Source: a virus (taxonomy: Duplodnaviria; Heunggongvirae; Uroviricota; Caudoviricetes). Taken from it: a stretch of 64,000 bases of DNA. Each line of letters begins with the position of its first letter. The first letter of the stretch is position 1. A program made the position numbers. Location: positions 1 through 64,000 of IMG/VR virus record IMGVR_UViG_651053022_000007; one strand, given 5' to 3'. Below, one piece after another: positions 31,101 through 37,100 of this stretch.

Positions 31101-34100
31101 ACGATCTACGAGACATGAAATCACGCAGAAAATCACTGGAAGAAGAAATAGCTATATCAGAAGAGAAGCTGAAGATGTACATGCAAGAGCACTCAGTCCT
31201 GACCCTGGACGGAAAGCCGCTCTGCACATGGAAATCTCAGATCAGCAACAGATTCGACCAGAAGCTATTCCAGTCAGTACACCCTGAGTTATTCGAAAAA
31301 TTCAAAACAACAACGACACAACGCGTCTTCAGAATGAAGTAAGGAGAAAAAATGTCTATCAATGCACTTAAGGCAGCGGCTACCGGTAACCAAGTTGCAC
31401 ATCATAATGAGAAACCAACAACTCTGGCCGGACTTCTGGCAGACCCAAAAATTAAAGCTCAGATGGCTTTGGCACTTCCAAAGCACATGACAGCAGACCG
31501 TCTGGCGCGCATAGCAACCACAGAGATCAGAAAGGTTCCAAAACTTGCATCATGCGACCAAGCCAGCTTCCTGGGGGCAATTATGCAATGTGCCCAATTG
31601 GGTCTTGAACCAGGCGGAGCTCTTGGACACGCTTACCTGATACCGTTCGACAAACGCCAGAAAGTAAATGGAAGATGGGAAACCGTATCTACAGAAGCAC
31701 AGCTGATTATCGGCTATCGCGGAATGATTGACCTTGCCCGCCGCTCTGGGCAGATCCTGAGTATCTCGGCTCGTACCGTACATACAAACGACAAATTCAG
31801 CTACTCATACGGCCTGGAAGAAACGCTCGAGCATTTACCTTGCGAAACAGGTGACCGCGGAGAATTAACGCACGTTTACGCCGTTGCACGACTGAAAGAT
31901 GGCGGAGTCCAATTTGAAGTTATGAGCCGGGCAGACGTTGAGAAAGTTCGTGCACTGAGCAAAGCCGGTAGCAGTGGCCCATGGGTTGATCACTTCGATG
32001 AGATGGCTAAAAAAACAGTAATTCGCCGACTGTTCAAATATCTTCCTGTTTCTATTGAAATGCAGAAGGCTGTTGTTATGGATGAGCGCGCTGAAGCTGG
32101 ACTTAGCCAAGATAACGCAGCTGTTATCACTGGTGAATATTCCGTAGTTGACGATGAGCGTCAACACCTGTCGCCAATTTCAGATTCAGAACGAGAAGAA
32201 GCTCGAGAATATATCATCGCGATACTTAATAGCCTGGATCCATCTGCTGAAGATGCAAAAACGATGTTCAAGCGCGCTGAAAATGAAATTAACACCATGG
32301 CTGAAAAGCTCGGTGATGAATATCACCAAAAATTCATGATGACGCTTAACGATATGCGTCCAGAATTCGAGTAACCACCACCGCGGCGCCACGTGCGCCG
32401 CACTGCAACCAAGAGAGGTATTCATGAAAGGTGCATTAGGTAAGAAAGAACTCCTGGCGGTGGTGCCACTGTCATGGAGCACTATCGACCGTATGGAGCG
32501 CGCAGGGGAATTTCCTAAACGCTGGTATATCACCGATAAACGCTGCGCATGGAACCGTGATGAAGTTGAGCGTTGGCTTGATGAACGTCAGGCAGCAAGC
32601 CCGGCAGAGTTCCAGGGTAAAAAGCCTCCTGTTCAGCAACGTGTATATCGTCCTGTGAGCAACGCGGCATGAGTGTGCTGCTAAGGCACTGGAGCAAATG
32701 GTCAGGATGGTACTTATTCCTGGCCTCTGTTTCAGCATGGCTTTATCTGCTGGCATTAATTTTCAGAGAGGGTTGGATTAAGTGAGAAAGTTAAGCCGAC
32801 TTGAAAAATATCACATGAACAAGGTTTCAATGCGCAGCCCTTCAAAGGTTGTTGCCGTTACTCCTGCGGCGATAGAGATCGAAAAACGCGCGATTGAAAG
32901 AGAGAAAAAAGGGCAGTTCCGCATTGCCGCCCACCTTTGGCTTCAGTGTATGGATGTTGCTTCTGGTGATGTTGAACGTGCAAGGATCGCGATTCTCAGG
33001 GACCAATGTATCACAAAAGGTAACGGACTTCGCCGTGGCGACTATAGCGGCATAGGATGTTGTGGGGTGGTTTATGACTAAGAAATACACACTAATCTAT
33101 GCAGATCCACCCTGGGCATACCGGGACAAAGCCACAGATGGTAATCGCGGTGCCGGTTTTAAATATCCGGTTATGAGTGTGCTGGATATCTGCCGCCTTC
33201 CTGTGTGGGATTTGGCCGGTGAAAACTGTCTGTTGGCCATGTGGTGGGTGCCAACACAACCACTCGAAGCACTAAAAGTTGTTGAAGCCTGGGGATTTCG
33301 TCTGATGACGATGAAGGGCTTCACGTGGATAAAATGTGGTAGTCGACAACCAGATAAACTGGTTATGGGTATGGGACACATGACTCGCGCCAATAGTGAA
33401 GATTGCCTGTTTGCGGTAAAGGGAAAACTACCTACGCGCATTAATGCAGGGATCGTTCAGTCATTTACCGCACCGCGGCTTGAGCATTCAAGAAAGCCAG
33501 ATATCGTTCGTGAAAAACTTGTGCAATTATTAGGCGATGTTTCTCGCATTGAACTGTTCGCCCGCCAGACGTCTCATGGCTTTGATGTTTGGGGTAATCA
33601 GTGCGAAGACCCGGCAGTGCAACTACACCCTGGATACGCGTTGGATATTGGCGGATTAACAAATGCATTCAGCAATGCTCCGCTGTCACCAATAGACAAC
33701 CAGGGGCGGGAGCGTGCAGCATGAGCCTATATCAACGCATCAATGGCGCTGACTGGTGCAATATCTTCGTCGTCGGCGATCTGCATGGGTGCTACACGCT
33801 GCTGATGAACGAACTCGACAAAGTTTCATTCGACCCGGCGCGCGATTTACTTATTTCCGTTGGTGACCTTGTTGACCGCGGCGCTGAAAACCTCGAATGC
33901 CTGGATTTGATTACTATGCCGTGGTTCCGAGCTGTTCGTGGCAACCATGAGCAGATGATGCTGGATGCACTGGTCAACGGCGGAAGTTTCGGACATTGGA
34001 TGTCAAACGGCGGTGGATGGTGGCACCAACTTGATTCTGAGCAGGATGTGCAAATCAAATACCTTCTGCCAAAGATTGCCAACCTCCCGATGATTATCGA

Positions 34101-37100
34101 ACTGGTTACCGGCAATAAGAAGGTCGTCATCTGTCACGCAGACTACCCGCACAACGAATACGCATTCGATAAGCAAGTACCAGAAGAAATGGTGATATGG
34201 AATCGTGAGCGGGTTAGCGACGCGCAGGACGGTATTGTCTCGGAGATAACCGGTGCCGATTTGTTCATCTTCGGTCATACGCCAGCACATCACCCACTGG
34301 TGTATGCAAACCAGATGTACATCGACACCGGCGCAGTGTTCTGCGGAAATCTGACGCTTATCAAAGTCCAGGAAGGATAGAATTATTTATTACTGTCTTC
34401 CATCCACTTCTCAAACTTCGACGGGGAGAACGGAATCAGATCCGTATGCTCCCCGTCAATCCAGGAATCAATCATATCTGCCCACTGCTGCAACATGTAG
34501 GCGCGCTGTCTGGCGTATTCCGCTTTGTTATATACGGCGCGCACACCTTTCTGCTCATGTGCCAGAGCCTTTTCAATCCAGTCTGAAGGATAACCAGCCT
34601 CATGCAACAACGTACTGGCTGTACGGCGCATATCGTGTACGGTGAAGTCCTGAATATGCTCACCATCTTCATTTATTATTTTCACCGTTCTGTCGATCAG
34701 AGAGTTCAACGCGGCATTAGATAATGGCTTCCGGAAATTGTAACGACCAGGAACCAGGTATTCACTTCCACCAGCGCACATCTGCAACCCAACCAATATA
34801 TCCTGTGCTTGTTTAGGCAGGTAAATAACGTGCGCCCGGCTTCCCTTCATGCGGCCTGAAGGAATTGTCCATGTCCATTTTTTAAAATCTATTTCATCCC
34901 ACGTTGCATTGGTGAATTCGCCTTTACGAACCATAGTGATAAGCACCAGCTTTAAAGCCATTTTCATAGTGCCCATAGCACCAATGGCATCCAGCGTGCG
35001 GAAGAACAGACCAATTTCTTCTGGTGTCAGTGTTCGCTCTCGTGGTTTAAATATGGCGATAGACGAAGGTTTAATGTCAGCAGCAGGATTAAACAAACCA
35101 TGACCACGGTCATTGGCGTGACGGTATACGCTGCTGATGATCTCCCTGGCCTGTACTGCTGTTGCCCGACCACCGCGTTCGACAATCCGGTCACACAAAT
35201 CACGAACCATCGATGTGGTAATTTCAGCCATCATTTTGTTGCCAAGAACCGGAAGTATGTCACGGTCGATCACCGCCTGCTTCATTGCGCGGGTACTTTC
35301 AGCCAGGATGACGTGTTTCATATAACTGTCGGTATGTACCGCAAACGTCTCGGCACCACGAATCTTTTTGATACCGTCACGTTTAGCCGCAGCCGGCGAC
35401 TGGCCTGCTTTAAGCAGCTTCTTTGCAGCAATCAGTTCTTCTCGCGCTTCTGCCAGGCTGATACCGTCACGCCCATACTGCCCGATTACCAGTGTTTCGC
35501 GGCGACCGTTGATACGGTAGTCATAGCGAAACGAGACCGTACCTGACGTAAGCACAGCTACATACAGCCCGTCACGATCGGAAACTTTGTACAGTTTGTC
35601 CTGTGGCTTGAGGTTTTTTAATTTTGTATCGGTAAGCACAATTCACCCGTATAGAAACCATTTTCATGACGGTATGAGAGTATACCTTTAAGGTAATACC
35701 GTCACCTGTACCGCCGAAAAATATGGTGTAGAGTGAATAGAAATGAATACGTAAAAACAAAAACCCTCTGCAAAAACAGAGGGTTGAGTTGGCATCTGAA
35801 TAGGAATGATTTGCTATGAGTTAGCTGTTAATCATTCCCACTCAATTATTTACGGATACCATAACCAATTGAGTGATAACATTTTTCCAAAACTCAATTT
35901 TCCTCGTACCGTTTTATATACCGTCACCGGAAATCAGTACCATGAAAAATGCCATGCTATCTGGTCAGGGTGTCGTACTGTTTTTCACAGACTCTTCCGG
36001 CTTCGGCTGCCCGGTCAGCATACTCTGCCAGTTGTCTGTTTCTCTCGAGAGATTTACTGAGCACGTCGGCAAGCAAAACTCCGGTGTCTGCGGCTGACGT
36101 CCCAGCGCCGACAATGGCGTTATACTGCCTGAGCTGCTCACGGATGGCAACGAGCTGTTGCTGCAACCGGCCAGCGCGAGCGGCAGCATCAAGAGCATCA
36201 TTGCGCGCCTGGTCGATCCTCTGCTGCGCTTCACGTTCATTGATCGCTTTCTCCTGTTCGTAGTGCTGACGAATTCTCTCATCTTCGGTTTTGCGGTCTT
36301 CTTTCGCCTGCGCATACCCGGCGTCGTACTGACGACTGCCGTGTACACTCCAGGCAGCAACTCCTGATATGACCAGAACAGCAAGCACCGCCATGATAAT
36401 CAACTGTTTCCGGTATGCTTTTACGAATGCCCAGATCATACCGCCAGCACCTTACTGGCAGCGATGTACCGCGCGCGCCGGTCGTCGATGCCGTTCCGGC
36501 CACCATTGATAATCAGAGTTACACGTGCAATATCGCCGGTATACTTCATGCATCCTTTGCTGGCGAAGAACCACGCCGCGCTACGAGCCGCATATTCGTC
36601 CTGCGCCAGCAGTTCAGGGCTCTCCAGCAGGTCAACCTTCAGACCGTTTCCGCAATCACGATAGTTATTCAAACCGGTAATCTGGATAAGTCCGCGCCCT
36701 CGGTAATTCCAGCCATCACCAGGGGCATTGTTCCCCATGCGTTTGCTGTATACCAGATTTGCGATCGCGCGCTGGCGCTCAAGTGGCAATGGTGGTTCAC
36801 CAGCACGGCGCCCCAGTGCATTAGCCTGCCCCTGAGTGAGACGCCCAGCCCGAACGAAGTTAGCCAGTCCGCTGACACTGTAGTTGAAATTCTCCTGCAA
36901 CCTGGTGAAGCCCCCAGACTCATGCCCGACTTGAGCAATAAACATTGCCTGATCTTCTGCTTTGCTGATACCAAACTCTTTCATCGCAGAAGTTATATGC
37001 GAGAACCAGCGTGCGGCCAGCGCCTCGCTAATACCAGCAGCTCGCTGGAATTGTTTAATCTCCATGTTTAGACCTCGTTATCTTGAAAATCTGAACGACG

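Follow-up and report, generated by a model that had tools for sequence, protein, structure and literature searches.

The last two genes before the integrase gene of an Escherichia coli phage raise the question of what they encode, whether they act together and what they may bring to the phage. The stretch of DNA analysed (the window) comprises 64,000 nucleotides of a viral record, and its preliminary description placed an MT-A70 adenine methyltransferase and a Ser/Thr phosphatase at 33074-34380. Both genes are present there in the open reading frames (ORFs) of the window, and profile and structure searches agree with both assignments (PF05063 for the methylase, PDB 1g5b for the phosphatase). 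Taking the two together, it is likely that they represent an orphan methylase of the early operon, which would modify phage DNA, followed by an optional, lambda-type phosphatase carried as cargo. In this reading we infer DNA as the methylase substrate, the anti-restriction role, the timing of expression and the phosphatase targets.

The phage and its early gene cluster

Membership of the genus Uetakevirus was judged by similarity and synteny with the type members over the early, integrase, lysis and structural regions. The window is 97-98% identical in nucleotide sequence to PAS61 and phiV10 across the region and has the same gene order, which identifies the element as a temperate podophage of E. 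coli of the phiV10/epsilon15 type. Identity to the prophage integrated at guaA in E. coli 4/0 stops at 35846, and the attachment site is followed in the window by lysis genes, matching the virion map of phiV10. The probable attP is intact in the window, and the phage copy there would therefore not be a simple lysogen; the test on lysogen DNA proposed in the preliminary description presumes a state that this copy does not show.

The features of the region are listed in Table 1. The early cluster has the order YqaJ, RecT, AlpA/Xis-like, PerC-like, methylase and phosphatase, all in the same direction. From about 29990 to 34380 the ORFs are co-directional, overlapping or tightly spaced, and they lie 3' of a terminator and a promoter-like site, the latter being weak evidence because such sites are no more frequent in the consensus scan than in shuffled sequences. 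The AlpA-family ORF also matches phrog_66, 'excisionase and transcriptional regulator' (E=2e-16). Read from the sequence, the PerC-like ORF overlaps the methylase start by 8 nt, the methylase and phosphatase genes share an ATGA overlap, and 2 nt, with no terminator in between, separate the phosphatase stop codon (34378-34380) from that of the convergent integrase gene. The position at the distal end of an early operon converging on int, as first proposed, is borne out, the cluster being co-directional with YqaJ/RecT. Within 33074-34380 no RNA element was matched in Rfam, and short repeats occur at chance level, none of them meaningful.

Table 1. Features of the early cluster and integration region (window coordinates)
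Feature	Position	Strand	Evidence or remark
Repressor gene terminator	29859-29878		Upstream of promoter-like site
Promoter-like site TTGACA-17-AATTAT	29930..29958	+	Consensus scan alone; candidate early-cluster start
YqaJ-type exonuclease gene	30443..31342	+	Pfam YqaJ E=2.7e-23
RecT single-strand annealing protein gene	31352..32374	+	Pfam RecT E=4.4e-57
AlpA-family gene, probable excisionase/regulator	32424..32672	+	Pfam Phage_AlpA E=3.1e-5
PerC-like small regulator gene	32782..33081	+	Pfam PerC E=8.1e-6; phrog_868 E=1.2e-60
Orphan MT-A70 (class beta, DPPW) predicted N6-adenine methyltransferase gene, 216 aa	33074..33724	+	Pfam PF05063 E=8.3e-22
Lambda PP/NinI-type predicted Mn-dependent protein phosphatase gene, 219 aa	33721..34380	+	PDB 1g5b E=1.1e-98
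Swapped cargo cassette versus phiV10	33725..34399		Pairwise blastn versus phiV10
P4-type tyrosine integrase gene	34383..35639	-	Pfam Arm-DNA-bind_3, Phage_int_M, Phage_integrase
Probable attP core, imperfect inverted repeat	35839..35875		Inverted repeat I4

The methylase, the phosphatase and the cargo slot

The methylase ORF runs from an ATG at 33074 to a TGA ending at 33724; the mechanical ORF list begins instead at a GTG at 33062. Its match to PF05063 (MT-A70) reaches 78.4 bits, where the cut-off is 23.9, and covers profile positions 1-172 of 172. The DPPW catalytic motif reported earlier is present as motif IV at residues 11-14, near the N-terminus (permuted order). Among 82 diverse representatives of 50% clusters, D11 never varies and P12 and W14 scarcely do, and the window protein retains all the columns that are invariant across this set, including D11 and W14. 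The PADLOC model MTase_II matches as well (E=6.8e-78). An AF2 model built on the alignment of the same representatives (pLDDT 88.2, pTM 0.85) consists of a single MT-A70 domain from residue 1 to about 185, followed by a disordered tail. The top Foldseek matches of this model in the PDB are the catalytic domains of METTL3 and Tetrahymena MTA1, all with probability 1.00 (E about 1e-14, TM 0.62-0.69), and by sequence search the DNA 6mA enzyme MTA1 (E=5.7e-13) is closer than the RNA enzyme METTL3 (2.3e-5). Sequence and model together point firmly to a class beta amino-methyltransferase of the MT-A70 family. Some sources label the family as RNA methylase (IME4).

Relative to diverged homologs, for which dS is saturated, the dN/dS of the methylase gene is 0.04-0.09, and the gene is under strong purifying selection. 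E. coli genomes and phages with gene copies 97-100% identical number in the hundreds, which together with the E-values excludes a chance origin of both genes, and the methylase occurs in about 10% of the complete genomes of E. coli.

The neighbours of the methylase gene are the PerC-like gene, the phosphatase gene and int, none of which is a restriction gene. The annotations of the near-identical phage PAS61, taken over its whole genome, and of the identical prophage in E. coli 4/0 include no restriction endonuclease. None was found either among the accessory ORFs scanned in the window, a scan that did not individually exclude many small hypothetical ORFs. The claim that the methylase has no partner restriction gene agrees with these neighbours and annotations. 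The window also has neither a second amino-methyltransferase motif nor an MT-A70 paralog. Phages of unrelated types have homologs about 70% identical, located behind the lysis cassette in E. coli and between the replication genes and Q in Serratia, with neither restriction endonuclease nor PerC neighbours; the methylase is a free-standing mobile module found in unrelated phage contexts. The 8-nt overlap and a database cluster of 297-aa proteins joining PerC and MT-A70 (P0003) had prompted the idea that the methylase depends on the PerC-like protein as its partner or specificity subunit. This idea was rejected as a general rule, because an extra gene lies between the two genes in diverged Uetakevirus-like contigs and no PerC gene stands beside the homologs of about 70% identity elsewhere.

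The phosphatase ORF, from an ATG at 33721 to a TAG ending at 34380, matches Pfam Metallophos (E=2.4e-15) and phrog_246, 'NinI-like serine-threonine phosphatase' (E=9e-108), and its alignment with 1g5b spans residues 2-217 in both proteins. It shares 66% identity with lambda PP, with zero gaps. The PPP family is defined by the motifs GDxHG, GDxVDRG and GNHE and by downstream metal-binding histidines; the window protein keeps GDLHG (D20, H22), GDLVDRG (D49, R53) and GNHE (N75, H76), and the gapless alignment to lambda PP places H139 and H186 as the downstream histidines. By these residues it is predicted to be a phosphoprotein phosphatase with a binuclear metal centre, of the lambda PP/NinI type, with its catalytic apparatus intact. 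Among close relatives its dN/dS is 0.27-0.48, a value that stems from a handful of changes between sequences too similar to show selection.

In a pairwise blastn comparison of the window with phiV10, identity breaks off after 33724 and sets in again at 34400. Within this interval the phosphatase gene replaces a DUF1382 gene, and the final ~6 codons of int are included in the swap. Of 80 related viral contigs, 48 have the DUF1382 gene, of 65 aa, in the slot between methylase and int, 17 have the phosphatase and the others have different small genes; the first slot gene begins at ATGA in every case. Roughly 540 E. coli records have the window-type methylase, and in about 144 of them the phosphatase accompanies it. 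At one locus (L069) the dS of the methylase gene is 2.8 and that of the adjacent phosphatase gene 0.08, indicating that the cassette was exchanged recently, between backbones that have diverged. The phosphatase is interchangeable cargo in a hypervariable slot between methylase and int, and the slot offers a clean example of such cargo, with precise swap edges at the ATGA of the methylase stop and at the 3' end of int. As for the proposed recombination and anti-restriction block, both genes do lie in one cluster with YqaJ/RecT, but the cluster also includes the AlpA/Xis-like and PerC-like genes, and the phosphatase has no fixed place in it.

Proposed roles and alternatives

We propose that methylase and phosphatase are the final two genes of a delayed-early, leftward-type operon, in which the phosphatase would be translationally coupled to the methylase through the ATGA overlap. 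The methylase is predicted to be a single-domain, SAM-dependent enzyme that most likely N6-methylates adenines of replicating phage DNA. Its action would be timed after infection or induction, and progeny genomes modified in advance would, on entering the next host, be spared by restriction that is sensitive to adenine methylation. M.EcoGII and Hia5 are orphan adenine methylases of phages or prophages that are silent in lysogens and, once expressed, block many restriction enzymes (PMC5778455, PMC3299994). The prophage methylases given in a paper on the ST131 methylome are different ones (PF02086 Dam-like, M.EcoGI-like), that of the window being absent from its list, and the literature searched contained neither methylation data nor an experimental study for the methylase or its close homologs. 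The phosphatase would most likely dephosphorylate host or phage phosphoproteins in lytic growth and be dispensable to the phage. Lambda ninI is dispensable (PMC10695390), and no report of an in-vivo substrate of lambda NinI was found in the literature; on these two grounds the phosphatase may confer little. Protection against host restriction and host modulation, the roles originally assigned to the two genes, are conventional inferences, and the earlier interpretation as a whole is partly supported.

Several alternatives have to be weighed against this reading. The methylase has no recognisable target-recognition domain, and its specificity could be relaxed or absent, or it could prefer single-stranded DNA, forming a broad shield like that of M.EcoGII, Hia5 and M.EcoGIX in place of site-specific, Dam-like modification. 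The modelled bare catalytic domain of about 185 residues would fit this view, as would the several orphan adenine methylases of phages and plasmids that are non-specific and silent in lysogens (PMC5778455, PMC3299994, PMC7736820). However, M.EcoGII, Hia5 and M.EcoGIX come from other lineages (DPPY motif; 281-349 aa for M.EcoGII and Hia5), the window enzyme is not homologous to them, and site specificity is possible in small class beta enzymes, so that we regard relaxed specificity as rather unlikely. A little less probable still, and offered as speculation, is that this widespread family of phage methylases of ~190-220 aa represents a minimal MT-A70 enzyme, with neither inactive paralog nor accessory nucleic-acid-binding subunit, perhaps a homodimer of short or relaxed specificity, or one acting on single-stranded DNA intermediates of replication or packaging, or on RNA. 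To our knowledge, every solved MT-A70 relative requires an inactive paralog for its activity, together with additional subunits that bind nucleic acid. If the speculation were true, the enzyme would be unlike all structurally characterised MT-A70 enzymes, a compact tool enzyme and a prokaryotic model for the origin of eukaryotic m6A writers. An action on RNA, or a regulatory or epigenetic role in phage expression, packaging or replication timing in place of anti-restriction, is improbable. The mRNA m6A writer METTL3 does belong to the family and is among the best fold matches, homologs are named 'N6-adenosine-specific RNA methylase IME4' in some databases, the gene lies directly 3' of a PerC-like regulator, and one database cluster (P0003) is a fusion of PerC with a methyltransferase. 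Against this, MTA1 is much nearer by sequence, the type II methyltransferase model of PADLOC fits, prokaryotic members of the MT-A70 clade are described as DNA methylases of restriction-modification systems (PMC4738411), and the PerC linkage is confined to the phage lineage of the window, being interrupted by a gene in diverged relatives and absent elsewhere.

For the phosphatase, a counter-defence or takeover factor selected for its action on a specific target (for example a kinase-based abortive-infection system or the Ser/Thr/Tyr/His kinase signalling of the host), as opposed to a near-neutral passenger, is a possibility to which we give a minority share. The wholly intact active site, the spread of the cassette across diverged phage backbones and the recurrence of the family in lambda, phi80, HK225 and P1 speak for such a factor, but most relatives lack the gene, neither lambda ninI nor P1 ppp is essential under laboratory conditions, and PADLOC returned no match for the phosphatase. 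It is very improbable that one or both genes are inactive relics of a defective or rearranged element. The phage copy in the window does have an odd setting, with plasmid-type and lambdoid DNA on its left and a left junction present in no complete E. coli genome; yet both ORFs are full length with all catalytic residues kept, the methylase is under the strong purifying selection described above, and near-identical genes occur in the plaque-forming isolates PAS61 (both) and phiV10 (methylase).

Both genes are ordinary phage accessory genes that are already annotated, and the finding matters little beyond correct annotation. Since about a tenth of complete E. coli genomes carry the methylase, knowledge of its specificity would aid the reading of E. 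coli methylomes and of phage host range, and the stand-alone MT-A70 domain offers a simple system for what the partner subunits of eukaryotic writers contribute.

Comparison with known systems

The closest counterparts of the methylase are gp33 of phiV10 (PhiV10p33, YP_512288) and the 'adenine DNA methyltransferase' of PAS61 (WMX18961), whose DNA is about 98% identical to that of the window gene, and RefSeq WP_000163441, 'MT-A70 family methyltransferase', which carries the same annotation. Identical genes with this annotation occur in RefSeq E. coli genomes and in Escherichia phage vB_EcoP_PAS61; no experimental characterisation of the phiV10, PAS61 or RefSeq proteins was found. The order AlpA, small ORF, PerC-like gene, methylase, slot and int is the same in phiV10, PAS61 and the window, but in phiV10 DUF1382 follows the methylase where the window has the phosphatase. 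With Tetrahymena MTA1 (DNA 6mA, ApT) and human METTL3 (mRNA m6A) the methylase has the catalytic fold and the DPPW motif IV in common, at just 20-26% identity. Those enzymes are obligate heterodimers with inactive MTA9 or METTL14 and have DNA- or RNA-binding modules, whereas the window protein is a lone domain. M.EcoGI/M.EcoGII, Hia5/Hin1523 and M.EcoGIX are functional analogues, being orphan m6A methylases of mobile elements that are silent in the host and protective once expressed. Homology to them was considered and rejected: M.EcoGI/II and Hia5 have 281-349 aa and, like M.EcoGIX, a DPPY motif in place of the DPPW of the window, and they belong to other lineages, Hia5 being Dam-like and M.EcoGII and M.EcoGIX beta-class DPPY enzymes.

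The phosphatase is in the same family as the chromosomal PrpA/PrpB (PphA/PphB) of E. coli (NCBIfam PRK11439, E=1.1e-79; PRK09968, E=2.2e-67). It is not an ortholog of either, because neither score reaches its equivalog cut-off (267 versus 326 bits for PRK11439 and 227 versus 332 bits for PRK09968). Lambda PP (NinI; PDB 1g5b) has the same size and the same metal-binding and catalytic residues, and lambdoid ninI genes are about 78% identical to the window gene in DNA sequence. Their settings differ: in lambda, ninI belongs to the nin region, a part of the rightward operon ahead of Q, while the window gene lies at the end of a leftward-type operon, beside int, in a podophage.

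Layout of the methylase-phosphatase locus

The preliminary description placed the methylase and phosphatase genes at 33074-34380, and both the ORF list and the sequence bear this out, showing two overlapping plus-strand genes. An ATGA tetranucleotide is common to the end of the methylase and the start of the phosphatase, and a PerC-like ORF upstream (32782-33081) shares 8 nt with the methylase start. The early region runs in the order repressor, terminator, promoter-like site, two small ORFs, YqaJ, RecT, an AlpA/Xis-like gene, a 38-aa ORF, the PerC-like ORF, the methylase, a cargo position (the slot) and the convergent integrase gene int, so that the end of an early-left operon converging on int is a fair description. 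The YqaJ/RecT block proposed for the operon end agrees with this order, but its membership was incomplete, as an excisionase-like gene and the PerC-like regulator also lie inside it. Between the early-cluster and int stops (34378-34385) there is no terminator-like structure, and phiV10 is arranged alike; early transcripts would read antisense into int, whose expression might be modulated by convergent transcription.

Coordinates of the features in the locus, the attP region and the DNA to the left of the phage genome
Feature	Position	Strand	Remarks
Methylase ORF	ATG 33074 to TGA 33724	+	216 aa; mechanical ORF list and sequence
Phosphatase ORF	ATG 33721 to TAG 34380	+	219 aa; mechanical ORF list and sequence
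Integrase gene int	34383-35639	-	convergent; its stop 2 nt from phosphatase stop
attP region	35640-35960, core ~35839-35875		imperfect inverted repeat; intact
Terminator after int	35785-35762	-	in int-attP stretch
TraI relaxase-helicase	994-5826		F-type plasmid part
AS-traI antisense RNA	3843-3919		in TraI gene
ParB-like gene	7123-9072		F-type plasmid part
PsiA	9558-10277		F-type plasmid part
sok antitoxin RNA of hok/sok	10627-10798		F-type plasmid part
DDE transposase	11845-12963	-	mixed stretch
Eaa-type autotransporter	16399-18048	-	mixed stretch
tRNA-Val	19558-19633		mixed stretch
LexA-like repressor	23141-23914		lambdoid early region
DicF RNA	25062-25113		lambdoid early region

The phosphatase as swappable cargo

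Escherichia phage vB_EcoP_PAS61 shares 97.8% identity with the region, and phiV10 and many relatives share about 98%; all are Uetakevirus (epsilon15-like podophages). Prophages in several ST131-type E. coli genomes match the region at 100% identity. RefSeq names the genes of these prophages "MT-A70 family methyltransferase" and "serine/threonine protein phosphatase"; both functions are thus already annotated in public records. The phosphatase matches Pfam Metallophos, PHROG 246 (NinI-like serine-threonine phosphatase) and the solved lambda phosphatase 1g5b (E=1.1e-98). Its alignment with lambda PP is gap-free at 66% identity and all of D20, H22, D49, R53, N75, H76, H139 and H186 are kept, which upholds the assignment to the lambda PP type; the enzyme is almost certainly catalytically competent. 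Its scores fall under the equivalog cut-offs of the chromosomal PrpA/PrpB enzymes. Neither lambda ninI nor P1 ppp is essential (PMC10695390).

Most phage matches extend over just 63% of the query, because a 65-aa DUF1382 gene takes the place of the phosphatase in phiV10-type genomes. Pairwise alignment puts the swap borders at 33724, in the ATGA shared at the methylase stop, and at 34400, within the 3' end of int, where the last codons differ. A comparison of 80 related IMG/VR contigs showed DUF1382 in the slot of 48 and the phosphatase in that of 17, the remainder having different small genes or an empty slot; the first gene of the slot always starts at the ATGA. The alternatives, as in loci L013 and L054 (~4648-5900) and L067, L070, L075, L079 and L081 (~4570-5710), include an 82-aa ORF with a 228-aa Bro/Ant-like ORF, a lone ORF of 66 or 116 aa, and sets of three to four small ORFs. 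Approximately 540 records among complete E. coli genomes have the methylase at 95% identity or more, and 144 of these have the phosphatase too. In contig L069, the methylase is 82% identical to the window copy (dS ~2.8), whereas the adjoining phosphatase is 95% identical (dS 0.08), a difference pointing to recent movement of the phosphatase cassette between diverged backbones. The closest lambdoid ninI relatives reach only about 78% DNA identity. The phosphatase is swappable cargo, and the slot, with contents unrelated between relatives, is a hotspot for finding accessory genes.

State of the phage copy and adjoining DNA

In E. coli 4/0 the identical prophage stops at int, adjoining guaA. Identity with it ends at 35846, in the imperfect inverted repeat; in the window, an intact attP region comes after int, and beyond it lie the genes for spanin, endolysin, holin and tailspike. 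The copy is therefore in virion or circular order, not split as in a normal lysogen. Left of ~25346 the window has lambdoid early genes, with F-type plasmid genes beyond them; the combination of the latter with a complete podophage genome on one 64-kb stretch is odd. Of 5,426 complete E. coli genomes, none is contiguous across the left junction to the phiV10-like genome near 25346. Given the intact attP, the virion order and this absence, the copy is not a simple guaA lysogen; candidate explanations are a tandem insertion, a rearranged one, a cointegrate and a chimeric assembly. The int-attP-lysis junction occurs in only five complete E. coli genomes, all of which have three att-type places; this is the pattern expected of tandem lysogens, which these five probably are.

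Several other features were observed in the window. The conjugative plasmid genes occupy 1-10800 (GC 55-62%), and a mixed stretch (11845-25346) separates them from the phiV10-like genome. The 5' part of int and the spacer between int and attP contain at least five copies of the motif ATACCGTCAC, direct and inverted, across 35112-35927 (35112, 35371, 35461, 35696 and 35912); these are candidate arm-type integrase binding sites. Between the tailspike and structural genes, a Bro-N domain ORF (41059-41754) has isrK (40826-40901) and a C4-type antisense RNA (40926-41011) immediately upstream, a putative immI-like antirepressor module under antisense control in the style of P1/P7, here carried by a podophage. 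A tRNA-Arg encoded by the phage (anticodon TCT, 59817-59893) sits between the portal and terminase genes and is likewise annotated in the E. coli 4/0 prophage.

The methylase and its likely role

The methylase starts with MTKKYTLIYADPPWAY and, as first described, belongs to the MT-A70 family with DPPW (residues 11-14), matching the Pfam model over its full length (E=8.3e-22; 78 bits, cut-off 23.9). PHROG 359 (DNA methyltransferase) and a PADLOC type II methyltransferase model (E=6.8e-78) match too, whereas no match came from the NCBIfam models. An AlphaFold2 model built with a diverse alignment is confident (pLDDT 88.2, pTM 0.85) and has one domain, from residue 1 to ~185, and then a tail that is disordered and little conserved. 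Against the PDB, Foldseek returned only MT-A70 catalytic domains, those of human METTL3 and Tetrahymena MTA1 (E ~1e-14, TM 0.62-0.69); by sequence, the DNA 6mA enzyme MTA1 (E=5.7e-13) is closer than METTL3 (2.3e-5).

The homologs returned by a word-indexed search number 3,063, almost all of them 190-216 aa long and from Enterobacterales. When representatives of 50%-identity clusters were searched exhaustively, 12,172 matched at E<=1e-3 and 6,529 at E<=1e-10. PF05063 was present in 81 of 82 sampled representatives, with sporadic fusions to ParB_N, inteins/LAGLIDADG, integrase, HNH and Mob_Pre. Against diverged relatives dN/dS is 0.04-0.09, with synonymous sites saturated. Homologs at about 70% identity occupy very different places in other phages: one follows a holin-endolysin cassette in an E. 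coli phage, and another, in a lambdoid prophage of Serratia, has replication genes on one side and antiterminator Q on the other. PerC and restriction genes are absent from the neighbourhood of both. The annotations of PAS61 and of the identical E. coli 4/0 prophage contain no restriction enzyme, and the window ORFs include no second MT-A70 and no other [DNS]PP[YFW] ORF of at least 150 aa, which supports the claim that the methylase is an orphan. It is a conserved, free-standing mobile module. Altered catalytic motifs were seen in some abundant homologs (protein clusters P0017, P0050 and P0074): a Klebsiella cluster with 614 member sequences has EPPW, and Serratia cluster P0074 and JGI/Logan cluster P0050 have DPAW; these enzymes may be weakened or retargeted.

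Our literature search found no paper characterising the methylase or a close homolog. The solved MT-A70 enzymes (METTL3-METTL14, MTA1c) are heterodimers with an inactive paralog and nucleic-acid-binding partners (PMC7544214), whereas the phage methylase has neither; this lone catalytic domain is its sole mildly unusual aspect. Overall, the preliminary interpretation follows convention and is for the most part reasonable. In prokaryotes, the relatives of the MT-A70 clade are R-M DNA methylases (PMC4738411) and, considering these together with the orphan-methylase precedents, we favour a role in which the enzyme would N6-methylate adenines of replicating phage DNA as pre-emptive protection. Hia5, M.EcoGI and M.EcoGIX were ruled out as relatives, being DPPY enzymes of other lineages; as functional precedents, they are orphan adenine methylases carried by prophages or plasmids, silent in the host and, when expressed, able to block many restriction enzymes.
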